Virus record (IMG/VR): IMGVR_UViG_3300032213_003144
Coordinates: 64,001 to 128,000 of that record
Direction: 5' to 3' (one strand)
DNA: 64,000 nt
From: a virus
In this document: positions 1-62,944 of the stretch, in pieces
How the letters are laid out: each line of letters opens with the position of its first letter
Numbering within the stretch: position 1 is the stretch's first letter
Position numbers and translations under genes: made by a program
The notes under the pieces: model-generated
The model's input: the letters and a program-made list of their open reading frames with translations, nothing else
Databases searched by the model: none
What the model was told of the DNA's origin: nothing

Positions 1-25
1 CTATTAATGGAAATGGCTGTAATGG

Positions 26-7161: not shown

Positions 7162-7167
7162 ATCCAA

Positions 7168-8090: not shown

Positions 8091-8944
8091 TTCCCGAAAG
8101 TGAAGCGGCGGAATACGCCAAACAAATATCATCAACCCAATCAGTTTCAATATTGATTTATTCGTTTGCCAGCATTTGTTTGTACATTCTAAATATTGCT
8201 GCGTACCAGAACGATTTATATGGTCTTCTGATAGCTTTGCCTATTAGCGCTATAGTTTCATACTATATTTTTTCCACTGTTCACGAAGCAGTACACAATT
8301 CCGTAGTCCCATCAAATAGAAAAATAAATGACTTAATTGGACGGGTTTTTGCTTTTGTTTTAAATATGGATTTTGCATCATTTAGAAAAATACATCAACA
8401 GCACCATATTCATGCGAATTCTAAGCGCGACCCAGATTCCATATTTGGAGAACAGGGTAAGCGCTCCTATGTCATTACTATGCCAACATTTTTGGTTTTA
8501 TTGCGAATATTCGTTGTGCTCCCAAGAAATATACGAATGAAATTTATTAAGAATTTAAGCGGCAGGACAAAAGTGTTTATTTACTTATACCAAAAAGACA
8601 ATAGTCAATGTCGAGTATATGTAATAAATTTCTACTTGGCACTTATTTCGCTAACCATATTTGGGTTTGATTCCGTGATGATGTTTTGCTATATGTCTTC
8701 AATGCTGGCAATGTTCATTATCTATCCAATGGTAACCTGGTTGCCGCATTTGTCTATTTTTGATAGAGAAGAACACGCTGTCGATAAATATAAAACGACC
8801 AAAATACAAGGGGGCCGACTTAGTCCACTTACCCTATTCCCAATACCTCATCATTTGACCCACCATCTTTACCCCAGTGTTCCTGTTTCAAGACTGAAAA
8901 AGATGTCAAAATTTATACAACCGATGTTGGGTAGTGCCAAGTAA
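8087..8944 (+). CDS. Membrane fatty-acid desaturase/hydroxylase family
   Basis: Three His boxes HEAVH, HQQHH, HHLTHH plus transmembrane segments. Confidence 0.8.
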   Translation: MIPESEAAEYAKQISSTQSVSILIYSFASICLYILNIAAYQNDLYGLLIALPISAIVSYYIFSTVHEAVHNSVVPSNRKINDLIGRVFAFVLNMDFASFRKIHQQHHIHANSKRDPDSIFGEQGKRSYVITMPTFLVLLRIFVVLPRNIRMKFIKNLSGRTKVFIYLYQKDNSQCRVYVINFYLALISLTIFGFDSVMMFCYMSSMLAMFIIYPMVTWLPHLSIFDREEHAVDKYKTTKIQGGRLSPLTLFPIPHHLTHHLYPSVPVSRLKKMSKFIQPMLGSAK

Positions 8945-11267: not shown

Positions 11268-12154
11268 TTTTCAACGATTCAAAAGCCGAACATCTTGGTG
11301 GTGGTGTTGTTGTATTTCGCAATGCTGTATCTGTTAATTGGGAGTTTGCTAATAATATTTCAAAAGAAATAGTTGATAGAGAAGTTGTAGAAATGTATTC
11401 TCCGGCAATAAATCCAGATAGCGGCAAAGAAGAATACGTAAACAGAAGTGGATACTTCTTTTCTAAAACCGGAATCGACAAAATGCCCAAAAGGGGCTCA
11501 AGGGTTCATCAGGACACCAGGGGCGAGGTTGTCGAGTTGTTTACATTTTTAGAAGACTCAAAAGATAGGTACTTGTTCAAATACATGCACATGTTTCCAT
11601 TATCATATAAAAATATTTGGTGGAAAGTTAAAGGGCATTTAGTTAACTATTCGTCTGAATGTGGTGGATACATCGGTGAACACAGTGACACCAGCGTTGA
11701 CTATGTTTACGGCATTCCTCACCCACCCCATCAGTTGGCGTCAAGAAATACGCTCTCTTGCATTGTGTATTTTGGCAGCTGCGTTGATGGACACATTCCT
11801 TCTGGGCCTGGTGATTTTACTGGTGGACATCATAAATTTACATATCTTGATATTGAGTACATCCCAAACCGAGGGGACATACTGATGTTCCCGTCAAACT
11901 ATGTAGCAGCACACGAGGTAACACCAGTTAGGTCAGGAAATAGATTCACCTATCTCGGATGGTATGCACACGGAACTCCAAACCCAAACGTCAATGAAGA
12001 AGTCGAGGACCCAGGAGTCAATCCAGAAAAAGCCGCAATATCATCAAATGTTTATATCCCATATTTAAGAGATAAATTCTTGGATTATCTAGACTCTGTT
12101 GGTGAAGATAAATCTTCAAAAACATATAGACTTGCCCTCGGGGAAGGCATATGA
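11264..12154 (+). CDS. 2OG-Fe(II) oxygenase (LGGGVVVF paralog family)
   Basis: HSD, FTGG, FPSNY..AHEV, GNRFTYL. Confidence 0.85.
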   Translation: MIFNDSKAEHLGGGVVVFRNAVSVNWEFANNISKEIVDREVVEMYSPAINPDSGKEEYVNRSGYFFSKTGIDKMPKRGSRVHQDTRGEVVELFTFLEDSKDRYLFKYMHMFPLSYKNIWWKVKGHLVNYSSECGGYIGEHSDTSVDYVYGIPHPPHQLASRNTLSCIVYFGSCVDGHIPSGPGDFTGGHHKFTYLDIEYIPNRGDILMFPSNYVAAHEVTPVRSGNRFTYLGWYAHGTPNPNVNEEVEDPGVNPEKAAISSNVYIPYLRDKFLDYLDSVGEDKSSKTYRLALGEGI

Positions 12155-12879
12155 AATTAACACACCTCGGAAGCGGAATAGTATTAGTACGAAATTTAGT
12201 CGAAATTTCGCACGATGACACCAATGAAATAAGTGGAATATTCAACTCAACGGCACCACAAGGTTTTTCGATTGTTAATGGGAAAATAATAAGTGATGGT
12301 GGATATGAGTTTGACGAGATTGGTAGGAGCAAGTCTCCGACCAGATATACAGACATAGGAGAATTCGCTATAACAAAGAAGTTGAGGGAGTCAATGTATT
12401 CAGCAATCGTTGAATACTGTAAAGTATTCCCAGTTGCTCTTGAGTGTATAACTGGGCAGACTGATGGCTACATGATTAGATATGGTCACGGAAGTGATAT
12501 GGGTCCACACTCGGATTGCAATCTTCCGTACAAACCTGGAACCCTTGAGCCGATGACAAGTAGTCCTGCATTCAATACTCTTACAACCTCTATATTTCTT
12601 AACGACGGGTACGCCGGGGGGGAGGTGACTTTCAGGATGTGGGGAATCACGGTTAAGCCAGAAGCTGGAACTGCAATTATCTATCCATCAAATTTCATTG
12701 GCTGCCACGAGGTTGCGGAAGTCAGCGATGGAGAAAGGTGGGCTTTTCTTAGTTGGTTTTTCCACGGAAACGGACAGGAGAGCAAAGATGGTTCCTATGA
12801 GTGGTCCCAGCAACTAAAGCAAAAAGTTGGACTTGGAAATATTTTTCAGAAAAACATTCTAATAGGGGATATTAGCTGA
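12151..12879 (+). CDS. 2OG-Fe(II) oxygenase (LGGGVVVF paralog family)
   Basis: LGSGIVLV, HSD, FLNDGYAGGE, YPSNF..CHEV, GERWAFL. Confidence 0.85.
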   Translation: MKLTHLGSGIVLVRNLVEISHDDTNEISGIFNSTAPQGFSIVNGKIISDGGYEFDEIGRSKSPTRYTDIGEFAITKKLRESMYSAIVEYCKVFPVALECITGQTDGYMIRYGHGSDMGPHSDCNLPYKPGTLEPMTSSPAFNTLTTSIFLNDGYAGGEVTFRMWGITVKPEAGTAIIYPSNFIGCHEVAEVSDGERWAFLSWFFHGNGQESKDGSYEWSQQLKQKVGLGNIFQKNILIGDIS

Positions 12880-13417
12880 ACAATCTTTTAAAGGTTGTTC
12901 GATTGAGTGCCTTCGCCGAATCAGCACAAATGTGAACCTTCCATATCCCATCAGAAAATAGGGATTCTACAAGTTTTATTGATTCTTGCTTGCCCGACAA
13001 ATATAAGTCACGCTTATCCTCACCGCCCCCTTGGTCGTACCCGGTAGGAAATCCTCGAAACAGTGCTTCAACAAAATCTATATTTGCGGAACCTGCCATT
13101 TCTCTTACTTCTTGTTCCGACTCTTCACCGTGAAGATTGTTTCCGTCGACATATATGCCCTTGAAACCATGTTTTGCTGTTGCGGTAATTGTTTCAATCC
13201 CAATATTTAATCTTCCTATACAAAATAGAATGTCTGAAGCATCCAGCAGCTCAGGAAGTGAGTCATGTCGTACTGCGCCGGTAAGTGTTTTAGCGTTATC
13301 CAGTGTCTGTTGAGAACGACCAATAGGAGTCCAGTGGACTTCGTTTCCGGAATTAGTGACACTCTTTGAGATTGTTAGGCCCATTTTCCCCATAGACACA
13401 ATTCCAACCTTAAGCAC
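12872..13417 (-). CDS. NAD(P)-binding Rossmann domain (6PGDH/3-hydroxyisobutyrate dehydrogenase N-terminal-like)
   Basis: KVGIVSMGKMG, SDILF, IYVDGN, LYLSG, ASxxK-like SAKALN; no C-terminal helical domain. Confidence 0.65.
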   Translation of the reverse strand: MLKVGIVSMGKMGLTISKSVTNSGNEVHWTPIGRSQQTLDNAKTLTGAVRHDSLPELLDASDILFCIGRLNIGIETITATAKHGFKGIYVDGNNLHGEESEQEVREMAGSANIDFVEALFRGFPTGYDQGGGEDKRDLYLSGKQESIKLVESLFSDGIWKVHICADSAKALNRTTFKRLFS

Positions 13418-13419
13418 GA

Positions 13420-14409
13420 CTATTGGGCTTTCTGGTTTGCCGGATTTATGTATCCTTGTTCGCCCTCTAGGTTTCTGACGAGGTAATCAACATTGTTGGA
13501 ATTCTCGTCCAGGTGAGAAAAGTTTGTCCTCAGATGGGAGCAATAAGCTTGATAGTCATCAAACACTGAATCAATCCAATGTGGAGCACACCAGTTTGAA
13601 ACCTCTCCTGGCTCAACAACTTCTATTCTGACATTTGCATCAGGGCTACCCTGAGAAAAAAACTCCAAATACGAATAACGAGTTCCGCCAGTAACCGTAT
13701 TTACGCCATGTGAGGCAACATAATTTGTGGGGAAGATTATTATGTCTCCCCGTTTGGCTTGATGAGATATACCCAGGTATGGGAAAAATAATTCACCGCC
13801 TGAATAGTTTGTTCCATCTAGCTCTTCCACCGAACCAACGCAATCGTTAATATAAAGAAGTACTGCAACCGTCTGTCTTGCGCCAAGCTGACCATAGGGG
13901 ATGTATCGCTGACCGCCAGTGGCCCTGTAGTTCGTATCATTATCGTTGTGAAGGCCGAGATACTTCCCGGTGTCGTAACGGAGAATGTGTCCTCGGTTTC
14001 TCCACCAGATTGTTCCTGCGACAAGGGGGAACATGTCGATATATCTAATTAGGGATTTATAAATAGAATCTTCCCAGTTTCTTACAATGTCCACAACCTC
14101 TTGCTCTGTGTTGTCTTGAATTGGTTGAAGCACTCTTACCGGTACGGCCTCCACCTGTTCCAGGGAGAACTTGTTCCCGTCCTCATTTTTTAAGTACACC
14201 ACTCCGTTTATGTCTGTGTCGTACTTCCATCTCTGCTGATGCGCAGCAAGGGCATTTTTATCAATCCATTTGGACATAAACTCCAAGTTGGTTTCCATGA
14301 CATTGTGAAAAACAACCACCCCACCACCAAGGTTGGTAAAGTCCAATTTCCTGATTTCCTCCAGAACCTCTGGCGTCATTTCTGGTGTATCAACCTCATA
14401 CCTCTTCAA
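13420..14409 (-). CDS. 2OG-Fe(II) oxygenase (LGGGVVVF paralog family)
   Basis: LGGGVVVF, WWRNRGHILRY, HNDND, YSGGELFF, HGV, GTRYSYL. Confidence 0.85.
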   Translation of the reverse strand: MKRYEVDTPEMTPEVLEEIRKLDFTNLGGGVVVFHNVMETNLEFMSKWIDKNALAAHQQRWKYDTDINGVVYLKNEDGNKFSLEQVEAVPVRVLQPIQDNTEQEVVDIVRNWEDSIYKSLIRYIDMFPLVAGTIWWRNRGHILRYDTGKYLGLHNDNDTNYRATGGQRYIPYGQLGARQTVAVLLYINDCVGSVEELDGTNYSGGELFFPYLGISHQAKRGDIIIFPTNYVASHGVNTVTGGTRYSYLEFFSQGSPDANVRIEVVEPGEVSNWCAPHWIDSVFDDYQAYCSHLRTNFSHLDENSNNVDYLVRNLEGEQGYINPANQKAQ

Positions 14410-15394
14410 TTGCGTTCACCCTTTCTGCGATGTGCGTTTCTCCATACTGAGTGACGCATCTATTTTGAAAAACAGGATTTGCTCCCAGCTCAAGGTCGGG
14501 GGTTGGGTGTGACCATATTGAGAATTCAGATTTGCAATAACGCTCATAGTCATCGTAGATACTGTCGAACCAAACAGGTTCGCACCATTGGATACTTTCG
14601 ACAGACTCCTTAATTCGGATATTTGCAGATTCATCAGTTCCGCCTTGACCAAAGAAAGTTAGATACGCATACCTAGTGCCACCCTCCATCTTGGTTACTC
14701 CATGAGCACATATATAATTGGTTGGAAACATGATGATGTCTCCCTTTTGCGGCTTATAATCAATCCCAAGATACGTGAACTTTAAGTGACCCCCGACGAA
14801 TGTCTCTTCAGTTAGGTCGTCTTTGGAGTCAACGCAATTATTGAAGTAGGCAAGTGCTCCGGCTGTTTGACGAAGTGCGACCTGGCCCCTAGGCATGTAT
14901 CGAACACCTTCGGTCACTTTGTAGTTGGTGTCATTGTCCTGATGCCAGCCAAGTATGCCTCCACCGTCATACCTGAGTATGTGTCCGCGTGTTCTCCACC
15001 ATAGGCTTCCGACGATAAGTGGGAACATGTCAATATATTTTATTAAACATTTATAAATGACGTTCTCGAGCTCTGTGAAGTATTGGGTGGCATATTCATC
15101 TGTCGACTCGATAACGGGCTCTAGCAGCCTCACAGGAGCGTTTGGGACGTCCTCCAGGCGATACCTGAAGCCATCTTCGTTGATGCCGTACTCAACTCCA
15201 TCCTCGCCAGTTATGTATGTCCATCTAACCTTATGTGCTTCGGCTGCACAGTCGTCAATATGCTCAAGGATTCTATCTTCTACCTTGAATACATTCTTGA
15301 AAACGACTATTCCGCTTCCGAGGTCCTCAAAGGCAAATTCTGATATTTCCTTAAGTTCGTTTTCCCCAATGATTGGGGTGCCGGGCATTATCAC
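14396..15394 (-). CDS. 2OG-Fe(II) oxygenase (LGGGVVVF paralog family)
   Basis: LGSGIVVF, WWRTRGHILRY, HQDND, FPTNY..AHGV, GTRYAYL. Confidence 0.85.
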   Translation of the reverse strand: MIMPGTPIIGENELKEISEFAFEDLGSGIVVFKNVFKVEDRILEHIDDCAAEAHKVRWTYITGEDGVEYGINEDGFRYRLEDVPNAPVRLLEPVIESTDEYATQYFTELENVIYKCLIKYIDMFPLIVGSLWWRTRGHILRYDGGGILGWHQDNDTNYKVTEGVRYMPRGQVALRQTAGALAYFNNCVDSKDDLTEETFVGGHLKFTYLGIDYKPQKGDIIMFPTNYICAHGVTKMEGGTRYAYLTFFGQGGTDESANIRIKESVESIQWCEPVWFDSIYDDYERYCKSEFSIWSHPTPDLELGANPVFQNRCVTQYGETHIAERVNAIEEV

Positions 15395-15396
15395 GG

Positions 15397-16020
15397 CTAA
15401 CCGACAAGAAACTTGACTGCATCAATCACGGTCCAAGACTGTCCTGCCGCAACCGGTTTTTCTGCAAGCGGTCTATCGGCCCAATTGAATCTTCCAACCT
15501 GTTGACCGTCTCGGCTTATGAGGAATTTTTCATTGTTATGTGGGATTCTCATTATTGCCTGTCCGGCGAGATTCTGTCCAGCGGCAGCACCTTCGGAGCC
15601 GTCGGCCTTGTTGTCGTCGAAAGAACGAACAGTATCCCCCTTCATGAAGCTCCAGGTTTTATGTTCGTCCGGACCGTTGACATCAATTTTTTCTGTTATA
15701 GGGAAGGTGACGAATGGGTATGCTTCTGAAACAAATTTTGCTATTTCCTCATTACCCATCGGGTCCATTTCGCTGAATTGATTACACGGAAAAGCTACAA
15801 CGCTGAAACCTTTGTCTTCAAACATTTCGTGAAGCATTTGCAATTCCCATAGTTGTCTTGCCGCTCTTGCGTAAGACCAAACAGGACTACACTTAGGCGT
15901 ATACCCAGCCTTGGTCGCAATGTTTGTAAATAGGCATACTTTCCCCCTCACTGAGTCAAGTAAATTTGGGGACCCGTCTATAGAGTTAATTGAAATATCA
16001 AAAATTGAACGATTGGTCAT
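15397..16020 (-). CDS. Glutathione peroxidase (BtuE/Gpx)-like protein with altered active site
   Basis: GKVCLFTNIATKAG, VVAFPCNQF, VTFPI.EKIDVNG, N.EKFLI.RDG. Confidence 0.8.
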   Translation of the reverse strand: MTNRSIFDISINSIDGSPNLLDSVRGKVCLFTNIATKAGYTPKCSPVWSYARAARQLWELQMLHEMFEDKGFSVVAFPCNQFSEMDPMGNEEIAKFVSEAYPFVTFPITEKIDVNGPDEHKTWSFMKGDTVRSFDDNKADGSEGAAAGQNLAGQAIMRIPHNNEKFLISRDGQQVGRFNWADRPLAEKPVAAGQSWTVIDAVKFLVG

Positions 16021-16316
16021 ACTTTTACTCCGTTTATTTCGACGGTAACGTACTTATCAATCTCAACAAATCCTTTTAGTATTTTGCCGACCGATTGAAA
16101 CTTGCAGTGAAAATCAACGCTCATCGGGATATCGGTATGACCGCATAGGTCGACGTCAATCGTGTCGTCTGTCGTATTGATTATGGCTCCAGAGAATTGA
16201 ACTATACCCTTGTCGTGGGATATTGAGCCAGAGCCGTCATCGTTCAGACCGATGACATACGATTCTTTACCCAGTGGGGATAATGCGCTTACTGACCAAG
16301 TTCCCAAAGATTCCAT
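16017..16316 (-). CDS. Hypothetical beta-rich protein
   Basis: Leaderless promoter TGcTAACAT (16323-16331) 6 nt upstream of ATG. Confidence 0.6.
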   Translation of the reverse strand: MESLGTWSVSALSPLGKESYVIGLNDDGSGSISHDKGIVQFSGAIINTTDDTIDVDLCGHTDIPMSVDFHCKFQSVGKILKGFVEIDKYVTVEINGVKV

Positions 16317-16335
16317 GAGGGTATGTTAGCACTGA

Positions 16336-17124
16336 CTATGGAGTCCTGAAGTATATTCCTTCGCCCCACTTGGCAAAAACATCAGAATGCTTTTCGACCA
16401 TTTCATCACGAATGGTACCTGACTGCTCGTAGAGCTCTCTGTCTTCAGGCTTGACATCTGGGTTTGAGAACATATTGCAATAATGCCCGATTAGGGATTT
16501 TCTTGTTAGTCCCCTATTGACCGGCATTGAACCTCTGTGAACAAGATGCCCGTGCCAAATTATGACATCACCCTTTTCGGCAATAAATGGGAACGTAGTT
16601 GCATTCCGTTTATCTATTTCTTTTTGGAAGAAATCATGAGATGATAATCCCTCTCTGATTCTTCCTGGCTTGCCAGGCTCCGTCAGGTACAAATCATCCA
16701 AACTGCAATTCCAGTTATGTGAACCAGGGACTATCTCGAACGGACCGGCTTCAGGGCTGACATCCTCAAGAGCAACCCAAGCGCCCTGATAATTGTCTCC
16801 AGCTTCTTTGAACGTAAAAGCTGCATCTTGATGCCAACCTTGTTCGGTTGACGTGAAGTACGTGACGTTCTTGTGAAGAGCTACCGCCTTGTTGACGTCA
16901 ACGAAAGTTCTTGCAATAGAGTCGTGGCAAAGAATGTCCATGATTTCTGGGTGGTCGAGGTATACGTCGAAGTCATTGCCCCATCCCTCTAGGTTTCCTC
17001 GTTCGTCCATTCGGTCTGCTACGTGCTTTAGCCAGAGCTGTTCGTATTTCTCGATGAGGTCGTCAGGGATTGCTTTTTTTAGTAATACGTAGCCATTTTC
17101 GTCGTAAAAGTCTTTAATGCTCAT
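16336..17124 (-). CDS. Phytanoyl-CoA dioxygenase (PhyH)-family 2OG oxygenase
   Basis: FYDENGYV, WHQD, WVALED...AGP...VPGSH, GDVIIWHG.LVHRG, R.SL..HY. Confidence 0.88.
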   Translation of the reverse strand: MSIKDFYDENGYVLLKKAIPDDLIEKYEQLWLKHVADRMDERGNLEGWGNDFDVYLDHPEIMDILCHDSIARTFVDVNKAVALHKNVTYFTSTEQGWHQDAAFTFKEAGDNYQGAWVALEDVSPEAGPFEIVPGSHNWNCSLDDLYLTEPGKPGRIREGLSSHDFFQKEIDKRNATTFPFIAEKGDVIIWHGHLVHRGSMPVNRGLTRKSLIGHYCNMFSNPDVKPEDRELYEQSGTIRDEMVEKHSDVFAKWGEGIYFRTP

Positions 17125-17188
17125 GAACTAGACATTACACCATTTCTGCTAATAGTAAGACACACACTATAAAAATGCTGAAATCTAT

Positions 17189-17650
17189 TTACGTTTTAAC
17201 CCAAAAGAAGGAAGACGCATACCTATCTCCTGCGGTGATTTCTTTTACACCATGAAAAACCGGATTGCGCCAAAAAATAAGCGAACCCTCTTTCGGCTTA
17301 ATCTCTATCTTGTCATCAGGGAAGTATATTTCACCACCATCAAAACTATCAACCCAGTACAGTGTTGACGAAAAATCTGGTCTTTCTTCTCTCTTTGTGA
17401 AATCAATATGGACATCCTGTTTTTCCCCAATTGTGGAAATGTTGTAGTCCAACCCTGGATAGTCATATTCTTGGACTGTGATTGAAAATTCTGCTTCTAT
17501 TAAAGATTTTACCCTGTCCCTTATCGACTCGTAGTTGATTGTTGGTGGCAGGGACGGGAACCCATCTTTTGGGGTATTGGATATATGTTGAGCAAAAATC
17601 TCTAATTCAGAAGCTGTTAGTAAATCTTCAATATAATGAATTCTGCTCAT
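17189..17650 (-). CDS. 2OG-Fe(II) oxygenase
   Basis: HID, FDGGEIYF, KPKEGSLIF, HGVKEIT.GDRY. Confidence 0.8.
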   Translation of the reverse strand: MSRIHYIEDLLTASELEIFAQHISNTPKDGFPSLPPTINYESIRDRVKSLIEAEFSITVQEYDYPGLDYNISTIGEKQDVHIDFTKREERPDFSSTLYWVDSFDGGEIYFPDDKIEIKPKEGSLIFWRNPVFHGVKEITAGDRYASSFFWVKT

Positions 17651-17668
17651 GTTTTCACAACGACCTTA

Positions 17669-18610
17669 TTAATCCAATGCATCCATTGCTTCGTAGAACT
17701 CCACTGGGTTGAAGCCGGCAAAATCTAGGTACTCTTTCAATTTTTCTGCATTTGGTGCTCCGCTATCGCCAAATAATTCACCCATATATATGCTTCGTTG
17801 GCGAGCTAAATCTTTTTGAAAACGTACTGAATAGCGGTTCATGTTTGAATGACCAATGTTGCCATGCCAATCATTTTCATAAAAAACCTCACCCTTGTTC
17901 ATGTGCCATAAAAATGGCTTTCCAATCGAGAACATTCTGTAACCACGAGTGTATGAGCGAAGTGCTACGAGGTGCTCATCACCAATAAATACAAACTTCC
18001 AGTCATGCCCAACCTCCTCCAACCATGATGATGAAGCAAACAAGACGTGGCCAGCAATCGTGTTGTGCTCAACCACATCTTCTCCGCACACAACTGAATC
18101 CCAAGACCTTTTTGGCTCTATCCAATTTTTTTCTGGAAAACCAAAAATGTAAGAACATACGTTGCAACAATTCTGTGAATCCGGTTTGTAGTGGAGTATT
18201 TCCCCATTTTCCCCTACTGACCACCATGGCACGAATGTTGAGATAATCGGTTTTTCGAACCCAGATTCAATTATTTTTTTATGTGCAGATATCAGACCGG
18301 AATCCCAATTTTTTTCAAAAAGCATGTGGGCGTCAATTTGTAAATAGTAATCCTCATTATTCCAAAATGAATCAGCTATCAATCTGTCAACACCAAAACC
18401 AGAAGGTTTACCAATTATTGAATATCTTACTTGAACGTTTTTAAGCATTGACAGGTCTTCGAAGCATCCGTCATTTGACTGATAATTTATTCCAAAAAAC
18501 ACTCGTTCTTGATGTTCGGCCATCTTTTGAGCTGACTCAATTGTTTGTTTTAAATATTGCTCATTATACGCAGGAATTGAAATAAAAATTGTCTTTTGAT
18601 TGTCGGTCAT
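17669..18610 (-). CDS. GT-A glycosyltransferase, GT60/Skp1 hydroxyproline GlcNAc-transferase-like
   Basis: TIFISIPAY, RVFFGI..Q, EDYYLQIDAHMLF..NWD..LI, KPIIST, F.G.E..VALR.YT.GY. Confidence 0.7.
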   Translation of the reverse strand: MTDNQKTIFISIPAYNEQYLKQTIESAQKMAEHQERVFFGINYQSNDGCFEDLSMLKNVQVRYSIIGKPSGFGVDRLIADSFWNNEDYYLQIDAHMLFEKNWDSGLISAHKKIIESGFEKPIISTFVPWWSVGENGEILHYKPDSQNCCNVCSYIFGFPEKNWIEPKRSWDSVVCGEDVVEHNTIAGHVLFASSSWLEEVGHDWKFVFIGDEHLVALRSYTRGYRMFSIGKPFLWHMNKGEVFYENDWHGNIGHSNMNRYSVRFQKDLARQRSIYMGELFGDSGAPNAEKLKEYLDFAGFNPVEFYEAMDALD

Positions 18611-19272
18611 AAATCAAATTTTTCTATTGAAGAGTTTACAGATGCCCTGTATGTTGTCTTAAAGTACTCATGTCTATTGTAGTCAAACATAGTGACAACG
18701 GAATATTTGATACCATCTTCGACATTTAGGGCAGAGTGCATATACATAAAATTAGAAGGAAACACAATAATATCCCCAGCCTCAGGCTGAATGGTCACGT
18801 CAAGATTTTTGAAGTGCAGAGCACCCCCAGTAAAATCTGAATTTAAATACGCAACTGACGAAACAGATGCGACATAGCTAAAACCATCATCTGAATGATA
18901 ATTAAAGTAGTTATCATCATAATACTTTATGATATTCATAGTTTCCACGAAACCTAGGTCAACATTGAAATTCCTGGCATAATTTAATGCCGTATCGATT
19001 ATTTTGTTCCGCATCGAATTTACAATTCGAATATCATCTATGTCGTATTGTTTGTTTTTTAATGCAACTAGGTCTGGTTTCCAATCAAAACATTTCCTAT
19101 AAGTCGCACTTAATTGATAGTGTCCAACTTGCGCGGGGGACCATAGACACTCTTGGCCGTTTTGCCCACTAGCAATTCTCTCTATTGCGTCAACTACTGC
19201 TGGCGCATCATCTATTGCGTTTGGGAATCTCCAAATTCCAAAGCGTTCTTCACCACAGTATGCGTGGTCCAT
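18607..19272 (-). CDS. 2OG-Fe(II) oxygenase, prolyl-4-hydroxylase-like (paralog of 2695..3426)
   Basis: HSDDGFSY, YLNSDFTGG, FPSNFMY.H, G.KYSVVTMFDYN. Confidence 0.85.
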   Translation of the reverse strand: MDHAYCGEERFGIWRFPNAIDDAPAVVDAIERIASGQNGQECLWSPAQVGHYQLSATYRKCFDWKPDLVALKNKQYDIDDIRIVNSMRNKIIDTALNYARNFNVDLGFVETMNIIKYYDDNYFNYHSDDGFSYVASVSSVAYLNSDFTGGALHFKNLDVTIQPEAGDIIVFPSNFMYMHSALNVEDGIKYSVVTMFDYNRHEYFKTTYRASVNSSIEKFDL

Positions 19273-19278
19273 TGATTG

Positions 19279-19506
19279 CTACCACTTGCCAAGCGGGCAT
19301 GCGGCTGCCTCCATCTTCACCTTGAGTTTCATGAAGCATCCACACTCTTTGCATTGTTTTGTTGTTTTGATTAAGCTCGGGCACTCCTCGCATATTTTGA
19401 ACCGATTTGCCGAAACATCTTCCGTCGCTTGAGGTGTGTTTGGGTTTAGTACATCCCACGGACGTGTTGTGCCTAGTTTCTTTTTATATTCTTGCCATGC
19501 ATTCAT
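19279..19506 (-). CDS. Small Cys-rich metal-binding protein (DUF6171-like)
   Basis: R..ICEEC...QCKECGCFM..K......CP.GKW. Confidence 0.7.
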   Translation of the reverse strand: MNAWQEYKKKLGTTRPWDVLNPNTPQATEDVSANRFKICEECPSLIKTTKQCKECGCFMKLKVKMEAAACPLGKW

Positions 19507-19523
19507 GCTGTAAATCCTTGCTC

Positions 19524-19754
19524 CTATACTGGTGGGTGAAAGCCTGTCTCATCATGAGTGTATCCCTCAATGACCATATCCTTTTGTTCCTCTAAAAGGA
19601 CTATTACCTTTGGGTCAGAAGATAGGGCTGCCACTTCGAGCGGCATATATTCGGTTCTCATTGGAATAATGCAGGCCACTTCGCCATCTACGACAAAAGC
19701 AAAGTAGGTGAAGTCTTCCTTGCGGAAAGTTGTTGGTGCTTCATTGTTTGACAT
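19524..19754 (-). CDS. Hypothetical tail-fibre-associated small protein
   Basis: FAFVVDGEV...AALSSDP.V...G..HD.T.F..P; AGGAG RBS. Confidence 0.6.
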   Translation of the reverse strand: MSNNEAPTTFRKEDFTYFAFVVDGEVACIIPMRTEYMPLEVAALSSDPKVIVLLEEQKDMVIEGYTHDETGFHPPV

Positions 19755-19775
19755 ATTTCTCCTTCTTTCTAAATG

Positions 19776-20795
19776 CTAACAGCCTGGGCCATCGCAATAT
19801 ACGTTTTGTGTAATGGTGCAGTTGGCGTTTCTTCTGTCTACCTGGAAGCAGTTTCCAGCACCTGGGTAGCATTTTCGACCGCTATTGTAGTACAGGACGG
19901 TACAGCCACTCGAAAATGAAGGTGGTGCGGTAAAGGTCGGTGGTGCGGTAAAGGTCGGTGGTGCGGCAAAGGTCGGTGGTGCAACCCAGCCACACTGTGC
20001 TTGGTACGGGTAGTTATTTATTCCAACTTCGCCACAACATCCGTCAGCAATAACATCTTGCAAGCTGTACGTAGGGCTTCCTGGTATGCAGTTCATGCCA
20101 ATAGGTGTTCCGTATGGGTCACATCCAGCGCAAGGGTCATTGAAGGTTGGAGGAGGAGCAGCAAATACCGGCGGTGAAACGTTTGTGGTCTCTTCAAGGT
20201 AAATTGAATCAGAGTTTGCCCAACCAGTCTTGGATACGTATACATATGTAAAGCGATTGACATTCTCACCAAGGCCAGTCCAACCGTGGCAACTTCCACT
20301 CTGGTCGTTTGGTACAACGTTGTAGCCGTAATAGTTGTAAGTATATGTAGCGTCGTGGTTGTCATAACAAAGCGGAATCGAGGAAGTTGTTTCTGCAATG
20401 TCGGAAACAATCGGTGTTGGGAGTTTTCCAAATAGCGGAGTTACCGAGTTTGAGTTGCTTGAAAAAGCCCCTGTGCCAATCGTATTTACTGCGGCGACCC
20501 TGAACACATAGGCTGTTCCGTTGGTCAAGCCAGTCACCGTAACTGAGGTTGAAGTTGAAACAGAGTCAGAGAATGTTGTAAAAGTGGAACCGCTGTCACT
20601 TGAATACTGGATTACATAATCGTTCAATGCCGGGCTCCCCAACATGACGGGGGCCGTCCAACTTACCGATGCAGTTGTGTTTCCATATGTTGCAGGAAGA
20701 CTTGCGGTCACCGATGTTGGTGCGCCTGGGACGAATCCCATGCGAAAACCAAACTTACTAGTTGAGCCGCTTCCAATACGGTTTAAGAATGGCAT
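19776..20795 (-). CDS. Fibronectin type III tail-fibre/adhesin protein with Pro-rich repeats and Cys-rich C-terminus
   Basis: FN3 motif P.APT...VSWTAP...Y.IQYS...TVTGLTNGTAY.FRV.A.N..G.G..S; APPTF repeats; many Cys. Confidence 0.75.
   Translation of the reverse strand: MPFLNRIGSGSTSKFGFRMGFVPGAPTSVTASLPATYGNTTASVSWTAPVMLGSPALNDYVIQYSSDSGSTFTTFSDSVSTSTSVTVTGLTNGTAYVFRVAAVNTIGTGAFSSNSNSVTPLFGKLPTPIVSDIAETTSSIPLCYDNHDATYTYNYYGYNVVPNDQSGSCHGWTGLGENVNRFTYVYVSKTGWANSDSIYLEETTNVSPPVFAAPPPTFNDPCAGCDPYGTPIGMNCIPGSPTYSLQDVIADGCCGEVGINNYPYQAQCGWVAPPTFAAPPTFTAPPTFTAPPSFSSGCTVLYYNSGRKCYPGAGNCFQVDRRNANCTITQNVYCDGPGC
19912..19983 (-). repeat. 18-bp tandem repeat (about 3.5-4 copies) encoding (A/T)APPTF
   Basis: + strand GGTGGTGCGG(T/C)AAAGGTC at 19921, 19939 and 19957, partial copy at 19975. 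Confidence 0.9.
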
Positions 20796-20801
20796 AGTTC
20801 A

Positions 20802-21773
20802 TTACGCAAATTTCGTTTGACTCGCAAGAACAGTAAATGCAGCATTTCCTGTTTTGATTATCGCAAGTGTGTATGCATCAATTGAGCTAGCGTTCCCAGT
20901 TGCAGGGGCAGTTCCACCCATCCATTTTGGAGTTACGGCCGAACCGTCCACCTGAAACACTGTTGGTCTTCTTTGTGTTGTTCCTATCGTTGCAAGAAAA
21001 GTTACCGTCGCTATCTGACCTGTTGCAAGAGTGTTGTTCAGTGTGACGCTTGATGTTCCCCTTACATTAAGCGTCCAGTTTGCAGAAGCATCAACCGTGT
21101 AGTAAACCGTTGGATTTGTGCTGAAGTCAATGTTGATGGTACCCGTGGCAGCAGAAGCACTTATACTTGCAGTCTCAATAACGGTAGTCACATCAATTGC
21201 CGTAAGTATTGCCTTGCCAGCAGCATCTCTTGCGACAATTGCTGATGCAGTGTTTGCGTCAGTAGCGGTAGTTGCCGAGTTTAATACTTTCCCAGGAGTT
21301 GAAATTGTCCCAAGTTTTGTATCGGCTATTCCGGCGGAAGCAATCTTTGCCGAAGTTACAGAGCCATCAGCTATATCAGCAGCGATTATTGTTCCGTCCG
21401 CTATATGGGCTGCGGTTATTGCGTTGTCCGCAATTTTCGCACCAGTCACAGCGTCATCAGCAATTTTTATAGTTGTAACTTCACCATCCGCAAGTACGAA
21501 TGTTGGCGCTGAAACCCAACTTGAACCGTTAAAAAATGTAACGTCGTTATTTAAATCTATATACGCAAACATCCCCTCCTGCAGAAGGGGTTTCCCGTCT
21601 CCAACCACGCCGGCAACGGTTTGACCAATAGCAATACCATTACCAAACGCAGTATCCCTGGCTGCGGTGGTCGCGAATCTCATAATCGACTGATTCATTA
21701 AATAGCCGTTAACGTCCGCAGCAGTAATTACGTCTCCGGCAACAAAAAGTCTTGTTCCTAATCCACCAGCCAT
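20802..21773 (-). CDS. Tail fibre protein
   Basis: F..GDV.TAA.VN.YLM N-terminus, IADxxVTxAK decapeptide repeats, C-terminal KW.GG.AP..NA..IDAY; AGGAG RBS before ATG 21773. Confidence 0.75.
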   Translation of the reverse strand: MAGGLGTRLFVAGDVITAADVNGYLMNQSIMRFATTAARDTAFGNGIAIGQTVAGVVGDGKPLLQEGMFAYIDLNNDVTFFNGSSWVSAPTFVLADGEVTTIKIADDAVTGAKIADNAITAAHIADGTIIAADIADGSVTSAKIASAGIADTKLGTISTPGKVLNSATTATDANTASAIVARDAAGKAILTAIDVTTVIETASISASAATGTINIDFSTNPTVYYTVDASANWTLNVRGTSSVTLNNTLATGQIATVTFLATIGTTQRRPTVFQVDGSAVTPKWMGGTAPATGNASSIDAYTLAIIKTGNAAFTVLASQTKFA

Positions 21774-21813
21774 TATTGGTCTCCTGTATTTCTGATTGTA
21801 AAGTTTATCATTG

Positions 21814-23088
21814 CTATCCCAGTGGGTATTCCCCAAGTACCCCGAGTGTCACGTCGTCAAGTGCTAATAAAAATGCCAGCACTGTCAAGTGTGTTATTTT
21901 GTAACCAAGAGGCCTTGATGGTTCAACTGCAGCAAGTACTATGTCGCTTGACTCGCCAACTTCTGCATCCAGGGTTTCGTTTACTATTGTTTGGATTCTT
22001 ATAGCCCATGGGTCGCCTCCGAATTTTGGGGTCAAAGAAACACTTCTGGTCGATGAAGAACCGTCTACTGTTTTTATAAGAACCTGCTTGGCTGATTCAA
22101 GTATCGCCCTTCTACTTCCAGCCCCTCTTCCGTGGTGAGAGCTACTCAGTTGCCACTCTAAAAAATCCCTAATCAAAGATTCGTTATCCAGGTAAAGTGA
22201 TTTATCTGGTAATTGAAAATTTTGTTTTAAAAATTCACCTGTAAATTGAGCCAGCCATGGCATGTACTCAGGCCTTACAGACTGTGGTGATACGAGTGAA
22301 CTTGATGCCCAGTATTCAGTTTTCAAGGACGGTGTATATATTTCATCATTCTCGTAGCCATACATTCTTTGATACTCACGTCGCGCGTCGCCGGCAAATG
22401 CAGTGAGAACGTCAATCAATCTGTAGAAGGGGTATGTTGGCGATGATTGGTCGGAGTCAATAGACCAGTAAAAATCAGGAAGATGATGCCTAAATTGACC
22501 AACAAATGGATTTTCGTAAAAACCAAGTTCCCTTATTAGATGCGCATTTGTCATTCTTATTTGCGTTGCTTCGTGTCCGGTTATTTCTACATCTATATTC
22601 GCATAATGGGTAGATGAATCGTTTGGAACGTAAGCAACATTTGACCAAACACCATTATATTGACCGCTTGATATTTCAGCAATGTTCTCTTCTACTGGAT
22701 AAAAAACCGAAGAAGAAGCCGACTGAGCTATGTTTGTTGATGGATTGACATAATAAACCGCTGAAGCTGAATCAATCCATAATTTTATTGCTACTGTAAC
22801 TTCATCAAGCGTTTTAATTTTTGAGTTAAAAACGAGACCAACACCATTTGTGTCAAGTGGGAGTTCTATGTTCCTTAATTTATATTTTACCGCCAGCGTG
22901 CTCGACGGGCTCGCAATGGCAACAAACCTAGACGTTACGTTTAAGTCTGTCTGAGATATTTCAAGCGTAGCGTTATCTGTTTCCCAGCCAAATGGATATG
23001 TCGTATTTGCGAGTGACACCAATCTGCCGTTTTCGTCATAGACGCTTAATGCGTCATGCCATGGGAGGAGGTTTACGGTTGTTGGCAT
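21814..23088 (-). CDS. Baseplate wedge/tail protein (P2 gpI-like)
   Basis: LPDFY, YMPWLAQF.G, RG.GS..AI; directly downstream of the gpJ-like gene. Confidence 0.65.
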   Translation of the reverse strand: MPTTVNLLPWHDALSVYDENGRLVSLANTTYPFGWETDNATLEISQTDLNVTSRFVAIASPSSTLAVKYKLRNIELPLDTNGVGLVFNSKIKTLDEVTVAIKLWIDSASAVYYVNPSTNIAQSASSSVFYPVEENIAEISSGQYNGVWSNVAYVPNDSSTHYANIDVEITGHEATQIRMTNAHLIRELGFYENPFVGQFRHHLPDFYWSIDSDQSSPTYPFYRLIDVLTAFAGDARREYQRMYGYENDEIYTPSLKTEYWASSSLVSPQSVRPEYMPWLAQFTGEFLKQNFQLPDKSLYLDNESLIRDFLEWQLSSSHHGRGAGSRRAILESAKQVLIKTVDGSSSTRSVSLTPKFGGDPWAIRIQTIVNETLDAEVGESSDIVLAAVEPSRPLGYKITHLTVLAFLLALDDVTLGVLGEYPLG

Positions 23089-24539
23089 TACGACTCAAAT
23101 ACGGTTATGGTCAAAGTTATGTCTTCTGCAGAAATAATCGGCAAAGTACCCTTATTCGCAAACAGCAAGTCTGTTCCGTACTTTGGTAGCCATCCACTAC
23201 CAACTGGGGATATTGAGACAGATTCTACATATATCACACCTGGTATGTTGGCAATTAGTGATACAAGTTGTGTTGTTCTTACCCTATCGAGATTGAAAGG
23301 GAAAACTCCAGGACTCAAGTAGTCTACGAGGGTATCAGTAATAGATGAACTAACAACAGATGTGTCGTATGATTCACTAATAACAACATCTGCTTCAATT
23401 GTTAAATTCACCAATGTTGGGTCTAGGACATTTACTGTTAGCCCGGCAACAGACGAGTCTGACACTTCTGTCTTGATTCCTAGTTTTTCTGTCTGTGTTA
23501 AGAACGTATTCAATCCATAACCAAAAACAGTTACATAACCTGGGTCGTCTTCTCCGGCATAGGCAGAGCCAGTTACTACAGTGCTGGCACTGTTTGAACC
23601 AACAGATGTGAATACTATTGTCGATGCGCTAGTTGCTAAAACTTCAAAATCACCAGAAAAAGGTCCGCAGTTAGAGAGCCTTACAGTATCTCCGGCTATA
23701 AATAAGTGTGGTGCCTGTGTTCGCACTGTACCGATATTCGTTGTTCCATCTCTAAATGTTTTAATTACACCAGCAGTCCTACTTACTGTTATGTCACCGG
23801 AAGTGCTGTCACCGTTTGTTAGGTCATATGAGCGAACTCGTCCAACAACACCAGGAAAAGTTGTAAGAATATACGAATCAAGTTGGCTTGATTTATTTAT
23901 GGTCGAAGACAATGAGCGCAAGTAAGTTGCAGAACGAGACAGATAATCTGAGTCTGTATCTGCGTTTACACCATTAACAAAATTGCTTGGGCTTGCAACA
24001 ATTGCACTAAAAATATTTGTACCAGCAGATATGACATTTAATTCCGCATTAGCTGATATTGGGGGTATTATTCCTAGCGTAAGGCAAGAACAGGTTATTG
24101 TTGCCGCTGGGTAGTCAGGGTCAACTTCTGGGTCAACTTCGGATATCTCTACCGCTTCGAGTGTTTGAAATGCATATTCCTGAAGCTCATCTTCAAAATA
24201 TGTTTCATAGCTAACAACTGTTCCAGCTGGAACAGTTCCGCCACTGTAGCTGTTTAGGGTGAATACGACATCTACCTGTGAGGCCACTCCTTCTTGTCGA
24301 TTAAATCCAAGGATTGCCATTACTCCAGACATCAGTCTGTTCGGTAATCTATTTATTGCTGAAATATTCAATGCGCTCACATATGCCATTGCCTGGAATA
24401 TTGCGTCTTCTGGGGTTCCTGTGCGAAGCTCAAATTGAGGAAGTGAAAGACGTGCAAGTTCAAGAGAATCCCTATAGATATCACCTGGCTCTAAGTCAAA
24501 AACACTTAGGTCTATATAGTTTGAAAAATCTGCAGGCAT
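23088..24539 (-). CDS. Baseplate J-like protein
   Basis: G.PE.AI, GT.V....F.T, NG.NA.TD..YL.R, PGV, LIANIPGV.YV; position in the tail operon. Confidence 0.8.
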   Translation of the reverse strand: MPADFSNYIDLSVFDLEPGDIYRDSLELARLSLPQFELRTGTPEDAIFQAMAYVSALNISAINRLPNRLMSGVMAILGFNRQEGVASQVDVVFTLNSYSGGTVPAGTVVSYETYFEDELQEYAFQTLEAVEISEVDPEVDPDYPAATITCSCLTLGIIPPISANAELNVISAGTNIFSAIVASPSNFVNGVNADTDSDYLSRSATYLRSLSSTINKSSQLDSYILTTFPGVVGRVRSYDLTNGDSTSGDITVSRTAGVIKTFRDGTTNIGTVRTQAPHLFIAGDTVRLSNCGPFSGDFEVLATSASTIVFTSVGSNSASTVVTGSAYAGEDDPGYVTVFGYGLNTFLTQTEKLGIKTEVSDSSVAGLTVNVLDPTLVNLTIEADVVISESYDTSVVSSSITDTLVDYLSPGVFPFNLDRVRTTQLVSLIANIPGVIYVESVSISPVGSGWLPKYGTDLLFANKGTLPIISAEDITLTITVFES

Positions 24540-24547
24540 TTGCGCTC

Positions 24548-24844
24548 CTAAACTAGAACATCAAATGCAAATGTAACTTTTGCATTCGAGTCGGAATCTT
24601 CCGTTGTTAATACTGAAGTTATTTTTACTTCTGGCACATACCGCGCGGCATTAAGCACAAATAAGCCTTTGTCTATCCCTCTAAACGCAGGGTCATTAAC
24701 TCCGAATCGTGGGGTAAATGGGTGCGTCATTGGTTCTGTAAGCATGCAGATTGAGAGTAGTTGCGTGTAATATTCGTCGCTACCATCTCGATGTTTTTTA
24801 AAACCAGTGCTATCAAATCTAACTGGGAATGCAATCATGTCCAT
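24548..24844 (-). CDS. Baseplate wedge gp25/gpW-like protein
   Basis: AFP.RF, T.P..HP..P.FGV.DP; size and position. Confidence 0.65.
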   Translation of the reverse strand: MDMIAFPVRFDSTGFKKHRDGSDEYYTQLLSICMLTEPMTHPFTPRFGVNDPAFRGIDKGLFVLNAARYVPEVKITSVLTTEDSDSNAKVTFAFDVLV

Positions 24845-25224
24845 TATGCGTTCTCCAATGCCGTAACCCGCTGATTAAGAGCTATGATTTGATTTTGAAG
24901 ACTAGTTATTGTTGTTACTAAAGTCTGAACAAGAGTCTTGGATGCATACACATCTTGTTTATTTTTTGCGCTACCAATCACCATGAGTTCTGTAAAAAAT
25001 TCATCAGTAAAAGTGCACTGTACGGAATCCCCTGTAGAAAGCTTGTTGAGCGTCGTTGTTCCAATTGGTGTTATTGGACCATAGCTAGTTCCCAGTTCGT
25101 TAACTTTTACAAAAACTCTTCCAGATGAGTCAACAGAAGTAACTGATGCTTTATAGAAACGGCCAGGAGCCAGTCTATGCGTCGAAGCTTTTTGTGAATT
25201 TACTATGTCTGGTCTTTTTGCCAT
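24844..25224 (-). CDS. Baseplate spike (gpV-like OB-fold) protein
   Basis: A.VTSVD..GRVFVKV, GD.V...F.......VIG; C-terminal coiled coil. Confidence 0.55.
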   Translation of the reverse strand: MAKRPDIVNSQKASTHRLAPGRFYKASVTSVDSSGRVFVKVNELGTSYGPITPIGTTTLNKLSTGDSVQCTFTDEFFTELMVIGSAKNKQDVYASKTLVQTLVTTITSLQNQIIALNQRVTALENA

Positions 25225-49950: not shown

Positions 49951-50058
49951 TTTCACTAAACTATTTCTGTAAAACATTCACTTTTTTTAAATACTTACAT
50001 TCTGGAACATGTTTTTCGTTTAATATCGACTAGCAGCCGAGAGAAGTTGGTTCCAAAA

Positions 50059-62924: not shown

Positions 62925-62944
62925 CGGCATCATGGATACCCGCT

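Follow-up and report, generated by a model that had tools for sequence, protein, structure and literature searches.

A prolyl-hydroxylase-like oxygenase and a GT60-type transferase encoded behind a proline-rich fibre-region protein: a candidate self-modification cassette in a phage genome

Introduction

Why would a phage encode, closely behind a fibre-region protein with proline-rich repeats, an oxygenase that resembles prolyl hydroxylases and a transferase that resembles enzymes acting on polypeptides? The question is raised by a 64,000-nucleotide stretch of DNA (hereafter, the window) comprising bases 64001-128000 of IMG/VR virus record IMGVR_UViG_3300032213_003144, a 170,425-base record, rated complete by CheckV, of an uncultured lake phage. 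On the minus strand of the window, a 339-amino-acid (aa) protein with an FN3 domain is followed, in order, by a 76-aa protein (s76), a DUF6171 protein, a PF13640 2-oxoglutarate (2OG)/Fe(II) oxygenase, a PF11397 transferase, a second PF13640 oxygenase, and a PhyH-type oxygenase. An earlier note, made from the letters of the sequence alone, had proposed that the adjoining oxygenase and transferase hydroxylate and then glycosylate the repeats of the phage's own fibre. Having compared these genes and their products with solved structures and with the corresponding loci of other phages, we consider the chances about even that both enzymes modify the phage's own fibre-region protein, i.e., that the genes constitute a self-modification cassette.

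Few "auxiliary" genes of aquatic viromes are as abundant as those resembling prolyl 4-hydroxylase (P4H), and a 2022 survey states that how viruses use P4H "remains cryptic" (PMC9301287). No paper on a hydroxylase-transferase cassette at phage fibres, and none on DUF6171, was found in the literature searched, which leaves subscription journals mostly outside. For the present cassette, the gene order and coupling, the family and fold assignments of the products, their intact catalytic residues, and the synteny conserved across phages are all matters of direct observation, and it is from these that the proposed chemistry is built.

The oxygenase and transferase

The transferase (17669-18610, minus strand; 313 aa), which we describe as a GT60-type polypeptide-glycosyltransferase-like enzyme, matches PF11397, "Glycosyltransferase (GlcNAc)" (where GlcNAc is N-acetylglucosamine), far above the family cut-off (E 4.3e-24; 86.1 bits vs. 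a cut-off of 21). The match covers profile positions 98-272, and a further one, to positions 1-41 of the profile, lies in the same frame; a match to GT2 (PF00535) falls below the respective cut-off (18.7 vs. 23.3). PF11397 was present in all 116 homologues found, and residues Q91, D93, and H95 were invariant in 40 transferase sequences; D93-A-H95 constitutes a DxH motif, the metal motif regarded as a defining feature of the GT60 family. An AlphaFold model of the protein (mean predicted local distance difference test [pLDDT] 92.6) displays alternating strands and helices in its N-terminal half and aligns to GT-A enzymes over residues 1-313. Among 48,161 chains searched, the nearest folds were those of mouse GalNAc-T1 (8v9q; Z 20.9, 278 residues aligned) and Toxoplasma gondii GalNAc-T3 (Z 19.4), both transferring N-acetylgalactosamine (GalNAc) to polypeptides, with LARGE1 (Z 16.7), SpsA (Z 16.3), and CgT (Z 16.1) ranking lower. 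Foldseek yielded polypeptide GalNAc-transferases throughout, among the rows listed to rank 47. Sequence identity to these fold matches was 12-17%, and sequence searches of the PDB with the transferase or its profile returned nothing, no solved GT60 chain being matched. The GT60-like identity put forward in the earlier note thus stands, and the outcome that the note had set against itself, a grouping with polysaccharide GT2 enzymes, was not what we found, the polypeptide transferases ranking above SpsA and CgT. The modelled fold of the enzyme points to a GT60/GT27-like polypeptide transferase with putative donor and acceptor, not to one of the polysaccharide GT2 type.

The transferase family is nearly confined to viruses: only 11 loci were located among one genome each of 185,579 cellular species. 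A PF11397 search across the 170,425-base genome returned one gene, and a tblastn search of public phage records returned one distant match, in Xanthomonas phage Xoo-sp13 (23.6% identity). Scanning viral contigs with the single protein gave nothing, but an alignment-based scan did find relatives, as described below.

The start of the transferase gene lies within the stop of the oxygenase gene (18607-19272, minus strand; 221 aa) through an ATGA overlap. This oxygenase matches PF13640 (2OG-FeII_Oxy_3) at E 2.7e-9 (38.3 bits vs. a cut-off of 27), with H126, D128, H179, and K189 invariant across 25 sequences, i.e., the Fe(II) triad (HxD...H) and the basic 2OG-binding residue. In a fold search of the same 48,161 chains, a structure model of the protein (pLDDT 87.4) was nearest to Pseudomonas putida PPHD (4iw3; Z 20.3), Trichoplax PHD (Z 20.2), and Dictyostelium PhyA (6t8m; Z 19.0), followed by PHD2 (Z 17.0), OGFOD1 (Z 16.9), chlorovirus PBCV-1 vCPH (5c5t; Z 16.7), and Chlamydomonas P4H (Z 16.0). 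Protein prolyl hydroxylases accounted for 12 of the 15 top rows and Foldseek was concordant, a result that is not specific to this gene copy, the only PF13640 paralogue of the window to have been modelled. Searches of NCBIfam gave sub-threshold matches only, to "Fe2+-dependent dioxygenase." The P4H-like identity first suggested for this protein holds at the level of family and of fold; we term it prolyl-hydroxylase-like, with hydroxylation of peptidyl proline as its predicted activity.

The candidate substrate

The candidate substrate is the 339-aa protein itself (19776-20795, minus strand), in which FN3 (PF00041, E 4e-14) occupies residues 25-116. In translation, it consists of an N-terminal MPFL motif, the FN3 domain, a middle domain, SPPVFAAPPPTF, a Cys-rich insert, three APPTF units plus one APPSF, and a Cys-rich C-terminal tail. 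The repeat run reads APPTF-A-APPTF-T-APPTF-T-APPSF, with Cys-rich stretches on either side, and is also apparent in the DNA as a tandem repeat encoding (T/A)APPTF units at 19921-19982 (Tandem Repeats Finder: period 18, 3.4 copies, 97% matches, score 117). In these respects the protein is as the earlier note had read it, and translations together with Pfam and PHROG searches located every gene named there on the minus strand, in its place; however, the Cys-rich tail and the two most conserved partners of the cassette, the DUF6171 protein and s76, had been missed.

The PP[ST]F repeats can be aligned with those of relatives at four loci (here given L numbers), and the fourth repeat position keeps a hydroxyl residue throughout: T in the window, S in L003, and S or T in L004, L154, and L087. 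More widely, a small protein recurs near the transferase in relatives, starting with an FN3 or PASTA domain, continuing with short Pro/aromatic tandem repeats, and closing with a Cys-rich tail, or with a Hint-like domain at some loci. The repeat classes near the transferase include PPSF, PPTF, PPVF/PPVFT, FFPP, YHAP, YYAPP, and PT/PTYFAPE, and proline is the sole residue type common to all of them. Tyr-rich repeats accompany the transferase and a DUF6065 protein rather than an oxygenase.

At six loci, the Cys-rich tail of the protein upstream of the transferase is replaced by a Hint/intein-like autoprocessing domain (GGGC...THNFK; L023:1-2421, L024:6066-7979, L030:3075-4439, L036:5781-7988, L053:6471-7982, and L141:53-1654), which comes after Tyr/Pro or Val-Gly repeats and for which Pfam Intein_splicing matches were below cut-off. 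Such endings suggest that the repeat stalk undergoes self-cleavage or becomes covalently attached.

Conservation across phages

The alignment-based scan identified 158 viral contigs encoding a relative of the transferase, from which 74 loci were kept, forming 44 clusters at 90% identity. Within the locus DNA examined, 19-21 of these clusters featured a repeat protein, s76, or DUF6171; 15 had only a 2OG oxygenase or DUF6065, and the remaining eight had none of the cassette partners and lay amid DNA-metabolism genes. Both L003 (transferase 80% identical to that of the window) and L004 (52%) retain the gene order of the window, from the repeat protein through s76, DUF6171, and the oxygenase to the transferase. 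In a tree of 59 representatives, the window transferase was placed in a four-row clade supported by a Shimodaira-Hasegawa-like approximate likelihood-ratio test (SH-aLRT) value of 99, and all four rows have the repeat protein, s76, DUF6171, and the oxygenase. A separate clade (L022, L025-L040, L045-L048, L060-L066, and L073-L074) often carries two tandem copies of the transferase.

Proteins of the DUF6065 family adjoin the transferase at 14 loci (L007, L010, L016, L020, L021, L024, L027, L036, L047, L055, L069, L075, L134, and L141). The family was considered as a relative of the oxygenases and rejected, with hhalign against the oxygenase family giving a probability of 0.2%; a DUF6065 profile search of the PDB yielded only canavalin (E 1.8), and a protein atlas search only viral DUF6065 clusters.

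As a second approach, 79 new loci seeded with DUF6171 were analysed, reducing to 46 clusters after dereplication. With the repeat protein denoted R, s76 a, DUF6171 b, the oxygenase O, and the transferase G, their gene strings took forms such as R-a-b-O, R-a-b-G, and R-b-O. The gene directly after DUF6171 encoded a 2OG oxygenase in 23 clusters, the transferase in seven, and another protein in 16; against a background of 111 oxygenases among 1126 open reading frames (ORFs) in these loci, the position after DUF6171 is enriched approximately five-fold in oxygenases. On the other side of DUF6171, the upstream protein had four or more Cys among its 70 C-terminal residues in 35 of the 46 clusters; in 28 it carried a tandem repeat no shorter than 19 residues, and in 26 it combined the two features.

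For comparison, the terminase of the same lineage was used to seed 80 control loci (81-100% identical), which with their 950 ORFs contained 0 oxygenases, 0 transferases, 0 DUF6171, 0 s76, 0 DUF6065, and 0 Cys-rich tails, along with eight composition-flagged ORFs, none of which was a tandem repeat. The composition filter for Pro/aromatic repeats also raised some false flags elsewhere (DUF6065-like proteins, L050, and L075), such that counts using it are approximate. The position behind a fibre-region protein that had been pointed out for the window cassette therefore recurs in many divergent phages and is absent from lineage-matched controls.

The small conserved partners

The two small genes between the candidate substrate and the enzymes are the most conserved partners of the cassette. 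The DUF6171 protein (19279-19506, minus strand; 75 aa; PF19668 E 1.2e-6, 29.3 bits vs. a cut-off of 27) has six invariant Cys (CxxC...CxxCxC...C) in a 41-sequence alignment with a mean column identity of 63%, and is approximately 60% identical across phages whose transferases share only 30-40%. Viral contigs encoding a relative number at least 611, and its gene almost always comes right after that of a fibre-region protein with a Cys-rich tail; all five complete lineage-mates have one. DUF6171 may be a metal-binding or thiol-active helper of the Cys-rich tail. For s76 (19524-19754, minus strand), neither Pfam nor PHROG gave a match; its relatives, which could be aligned, separate the fibre-region protein from DUF6171 in 23 of the 46 dereplicated DUF6171-seeded loci. 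Complex prediction for s76 with DUF6171 scored 0.08 against a mark of 0.32, in a comparison made without control runs. Four further loci (L084, L088, L098, and L099) encode, behind the fibre gene and directly upstream of DUF6171, a 159-174-aa protein with a motif that, judged by eye, resembles those of acetyltransferases (HPDHRGKGIA...).

Surrounding genes

A tightly packed minus-strand gene row leads up to the cassette, running from a baseplate J gene (23088-24539; PF04865) through a 424-aa gene (21814-23088) and a 344-aa tail-fibre-like gene (20802-21836; PHROG tail-fibre families phrog_892, the best named match, at E 1.9e-14, and phrog_5906 at E 9e-26) into the 339-aa FN3 protein. Downstream of the transferase, the second oxygenase (17189-17650, minus strand; 153 aa; PF13640 E 1.6e-9) is not a conserved cassette member: it has no counterpart at this place in L003, the closest relative, in which a 99-aa gene and a glutathione peroxidase gene come immediately after the transferase. 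A promoter and terminator scan of 12000-25000 returned fewer candidates than shuffled sequence (21 vs. 26.5 and 7 vs. 10.5, respectively) and gave no hint of separate transcription units. One freshwater metatranscriptome run contained two short contigs of at least 99% identity, covering 18351-18513 of the transferase gene and 19532-19723 of the s76 gene, with the remainder of the stretch uncovered; the library may contain DNA, hence the contigs are no proof of transcription. No match to 16000-22000 was obtained by megablast against public phage records.

A second fibre row lies on the plus strand just before the window, where a 241-aa protein with two FN3 domains and approximately 12 PPFF/PPYF units (G000 62676-63401, equivalent to L167:8677-9399) is followed directly by a PF13640 oxygenase (G000 63416-64039, reaching window positions 1-39). 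This second cassette continues into the window with two proteins of approximately 250 aa (26-781 and 771-1511), three oxygenases starting at 1530, 2160, and 2695, and a DUF6065 protein (3423-4124, plus strand; PF19541 E 1.2e-44). The protein atlas groups the two 250-aa proteins with Sulfotransfer_2, which is a lead only; a Pfam scan gave nothing for them at E<=1, and PF03567 gave nothing in the genome. Repeat-bearing fibre-region proteins thereby flank an accessory island of approximately 19 kb on both sides. Outside the window, two WhiB-family genes (E ~2e-15; G000 33260-33451 and 151964-152185) fit, together with the PASTA domains found in relatives, an actinobacterial host. Farther along the window, at 50047-61131, a single frame encodes a 3694-aa polyvalent protein in which a prohead serine protease domain is joined with ArdC-N, an MPTase-PolyVal zincin, and parts resembling UvrD helicase.

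Discussion

A putative route to a modified fibre

From the above we infer the fibre-region protein as the substrate, proline as the hydroxylated residue, and the identities of sugar and acceptor. The 339-aa FN3 protein would be made in the host cytoplasm, where the 221-aa oxygenase, with Fe(II), 2-oxoglutarate, and O2, would hydroxylate prolines of the PPxF repeat or linker region. A sugar, probably an N-acetylhexosamine (HexNAc) from a uridine diphosphate (UDP)-sugar, would then be added there by the GT60/GT27-like transferase, whose translation is coupled to that of the oxygenase. The product would be a stiff, protease-resistant, glycan-coated stalk bearing a Cys-rich tip, for which DUF6171 and the 76-aa protein would serve as conserved helpers.

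Where the sugar would be attached, if the fibre is glycosylated, is less clear-cut. Hydroxyproline (Hyp) is favoured as acceptor by the fact that proline alone is common to every repeat class. Against this, the window repeats conserve Thr/Ser, and the nearest transferase folds are Ser/Thr-directed. Between a Skp1/Gnt1-like linkage to Hyp and a mucin-like linkage to the conserved Thr/Ser, we see roughly even prospects, with a slight lean to the latter. As such, the suggestion that the phage hydroxylates and glycosylates its own fibre gains from the enzyme identities and the recurrent fibre context, but not as regards the APPTF repeats as the site of modification or Hyp as the acceptor.

Several results weigh against joint action of the two enzymes on the fibre. 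By sequence, the oxygenase matched solved prolyl hydroxylases only at E 0.08-0.18 (phmmer vs. PDB; P3H1 at E 0.079, Bacillus anthracis P4H at E 0.16), and its close relatives are few (16 proteins at E<=1e-5). Among 31 after-DUF6171 oxygenases of other phages, 27 best match a different window paralogue (2695-3426, plus strand; PF13640 E 5.3e-13), located in the second cassette, and none best matches the copy at 18607-19272. The transferase is accessory, occurring in 14 of 46 DUF6171-seeded clusters and one of five complete lineage-mates, and enzyme content after DUF6171 is variable overall. In one lineage-mate (G005), the fibre protein has a Cys tail and no Pro repeat, and is nonetheless followed by s76, DUF6171, a transferase, and an oxygenase. 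(The G005 cassette continues with a 346-aa protein bearing a CxxxCxxC motif like that of radical-SAM enzymes [L260:519-1559], which may be a further tailoring enzyme.) The co-occurrence of Pro-rich fibres with these enzymes, proposed earlier as a check, is modest: an oxygenase or transferase follows 24 of 28 repeat-bearing vs. 10 of 18 repeat-less proteins (Fisher p 0.04, uncorrected for relatedness), whereas for the transferase alone the counts are 11 of 28 vs. 3 of 18 (p 0.19). Repeats devoid of Ser/Thr likewise do not predict an oxygenase nearby (4 of 8 vs. 7 of 16).

To these must be added the wealth of oxygenases in the window itself, in which 14 2OG-type oxygenase genes lie between 1530 and 19272, comprising 11 PF13640 matches (nine over cut-off) as well as PF13759, Asp/Arg-hydroxylase, and PhyH proteins. 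With 14 such genes within approximately 19 kb, adjacency of a transferase and an oxygenase is near what chance would provide. Adjacency within the window thus counts for little, and the case has to rest on other genomes.

Alternative readings

One alternative is that the transferase alone acts on the fibre, in a single step, O-glycosylating either the conserved Thr/Ser within the PP(T/S)F units or further regions rich in Ser/Thr, with the oxygenase as one of many paralogues devoted to another substrate. Mucin-type GT27 and Thr-directed GT60 enzymes do O-glycosylate Thr/Ser, the nearest folds to the window enzyme are Ser/Thr-directed GalNAc-transferases, and the hydroxyl residue at the fourth repeat position is kept in all of the aligned relatives. 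The transferase is also found behind Thr-rich linkers with no oxygenase in the locus DNA examined (L101, L108, L115, L127, and L141), and the abundance of oxygenases in the window makes their adjacency cheap. However, the ATGA coupling of oxygenase and transferase is kept in L003, the transferase also sits beside FFPP-type repeats almost without Ser/Thr (L011, L081, L104, L029, and L077), and an oxygenase is the commonest gene directly after DUF6171 across phages. We regard one-step glycosylation by the transferase as unlikely.

Alternatively, both enzymes could be auxiliary or takeover functions directed at host proteins or envelope components, and be located behind fibre genes simply through the tendency of this lineage to collect accessory genes there. 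Such a role would fit the location of the cassette at the edge of the accessory island, which, besides its oxygenases, encodes a cyclopropane-fatty-acid-synthase-like (CMAS-like) methyltransferase (6037-7167), an Asp/Arg-hydroxylase-like protein (7380-8090), a fatty-acid desaturase (8087-8944), and a glutathione peroxidase (15397-16020). It would also fit the closest fold match of the oxygenase, which is the Pseudomonas prolyl hydroxylase of EF-Tu, as well as the presence of the enzymes without Pro repeats in G005 and the varying enzyme content after DUF6171. Conversely, order and orientation after the fibre-region protein, s76, and DUF6171 are fixed at loci whose transferases share only 30-40% identity, the cassette genes are absent from control regions of the same lineage, and a second pairing of repeat protein and oxygenase exists in the same genome. 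Host-directed activity is, in our estimation, just as unlikely.

Lastly, the separate transferase clade lies amid GT2, C5-cytosine methylase, staphylococcal-nuclease-like, pyrimidine-dimer glycosylase, and nucleoside deoxyribosyltransferase genes, not near fibres, which adds to the points against a general fibre role; its members may have a different target, possibly DNA. That the window transferase itself would act on phage DNA, a small molecule, or a glycan instead of a protein is very improbable, as it belongs to a different, well-supported clade with fibre context in all four rows, has polypeptide transferases as its nearest folds, and is not adjoined by any DNA-metabolism gene.

Relation to known systems

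Modification of the fibre by both enzymes has its nearest parallel in the Skp1 pathway of Dictyostelium and Toxoplasma, in which the prolyl 4-hydroxylase PhyA acts first and Gnt1 (CAZy GT60) then glycosylates the resulting Hyp. GT60 enzymes transfer alpha-linked GlcNAc from UDP-GlcNAc to Hyp (Gnt1) or to Thr (OGNT), and in the Skp1 pathway further transferases extend the GlcNAc to a pentasaccharide. The phage locus shares with this pathway the pairing of a P4H-type oxygenase, close to PhyA in fold, with a PF11397-type transferase, and both phage enzymes appear by eye to have no signal peptide, in keeping with the cytoplasmic enzymes of the Skp1 pathway and with the cytoplasm as the place where virions assemble. 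Differences are nonetheless evident: (i) no Skp1 is encoded by the phage (a search of all 170,425 bases for PF01466 gave nothing at E<=1); (ii) where Skp1 is modified at a single Pro, the repetitive fibre-region protein that is the candidate substrate in the phage offers many potential sites, and the enzyme genes stand in one operon; and (iii) no extending glycosyltransferases were seen beside the phage pair or in protein scans of the window, no dedicated search for them having been made. Given the lack of Skp1 and the repetitive structural nature of the candidate substrate, the phage pair would work like the Skp1 pathway without being a member of it.

Mucin-type O-glycosylation is initiated by GT27 polypeptide GalNAc-transferases, or by GT60 alpha-GlcNAc-transferases acting on Thr/Ser, as in Trypanosoma cruzi and the spore coat of Dictyostelium. 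The best fold matches, the DxH motif, and Pro-rich candidate acceptor regions containing Thr/Ser all recall these systems; in contrast to the mucin-type enzymes, the phage protein is a catalytic domain only, lacking a lectin domain and a membrane anchor, and its gene is coupled to that of an oxygenase. In the Hyp-rich glycoproteins of plants and algae (extensins), P4H action is followed by Hyp-O-glycosylation with arabinose or galactose, carried out in the secretory pathway by other transferase families. Points of resemblance are short tandem repeats rich in Pro, a P4H that belongs to the same Pfam family (with that of Chlamydomonas among the fold matches), and glycosylation proposed to stiffen a polyproline-II rod, with no kinship of extensin and phage substrates implied.

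Two viral systems also bear on the cassette. Chlorovirus PBCV-1 has a prolyl 4-hydroxylase and Pro-rich repeat proteins of its own, as far as the account in PMC9301287 goes (citing Eriksson et al. 1999). There, as here, a virus-encoded P4H (vCPH) is matched with virus-encoded Pro-rich repeats as proposed substrates; PBCV-1 is however a eukaryotic virus, whereas in the bacteriophage the enzyme gene lies behind that of its candidate substrate. We know of no glycosyltransferase coupled to the PBCV-1 enzyme. Mycobacteriophages, for their part, encode glycosyltransferases that decorate their own structural proteins, according to what is related of Freeman et al. 2023 (PMC10527164) in PMC12619734 and PMC12801897. 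The resemblance here is that of a phage transferase gene near a structural gene, four genes after the fibre-region protein in the window, where decoration is putative; an actinobacterial host in the one case is matched by two WhiB genes in the other. Mycobacteriophage glycans sit on the C-termini of capsid and tail-tube subunits, unlike those proposed for this phage. In that system, no hydroxylase is reportedly involved and the transferase is said to be of a different family.

Implications

The window cassette probably represents known chemistry in a new setting. It points to a concrete candidate substrate, encoded next door, for viral P4H-like enzymes, and the comparison across phages gives DUF6171 a genomic context for the first time. 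If the proposed modification of the fibre-region protein holds true, it would place another type of virion glycosylation beside that of mycobacteriophages and extend Hyp chemistry to bacteriophages, and would suggest that tunable, glycan-coated receptor-binding stalks influence host range and the stability of virions in lakes.

More tentatively, and with the balance of our expectation on the negative side, freshwater actinophages may share an as-yet undescribed fibre-maturation system. Its core would be a protein with a Pro-rich stalk and a Cys-rich knob tip, always accompanied by DUF6171, often by the 76-aa protein, and by a variable set of tailoring enzymes (prolyl-hydroxylase-like oxygenases, the GT60-type transferase, DUF6065, and perhaps sulfotransferases), together giving rise to extensin- or mucin-like, Hyp-bearing, glycosylated virion rods. 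Such a system, if true, would be the first instance of Hyp-linked protein glycosylation in a bacterial virus, and the abundant auxiliary genes that viruses carry under the label "prolyl 4-hydroxylase" would come to be seen as encoding enzymes that tailor structural proteins and whose substrate can be named.

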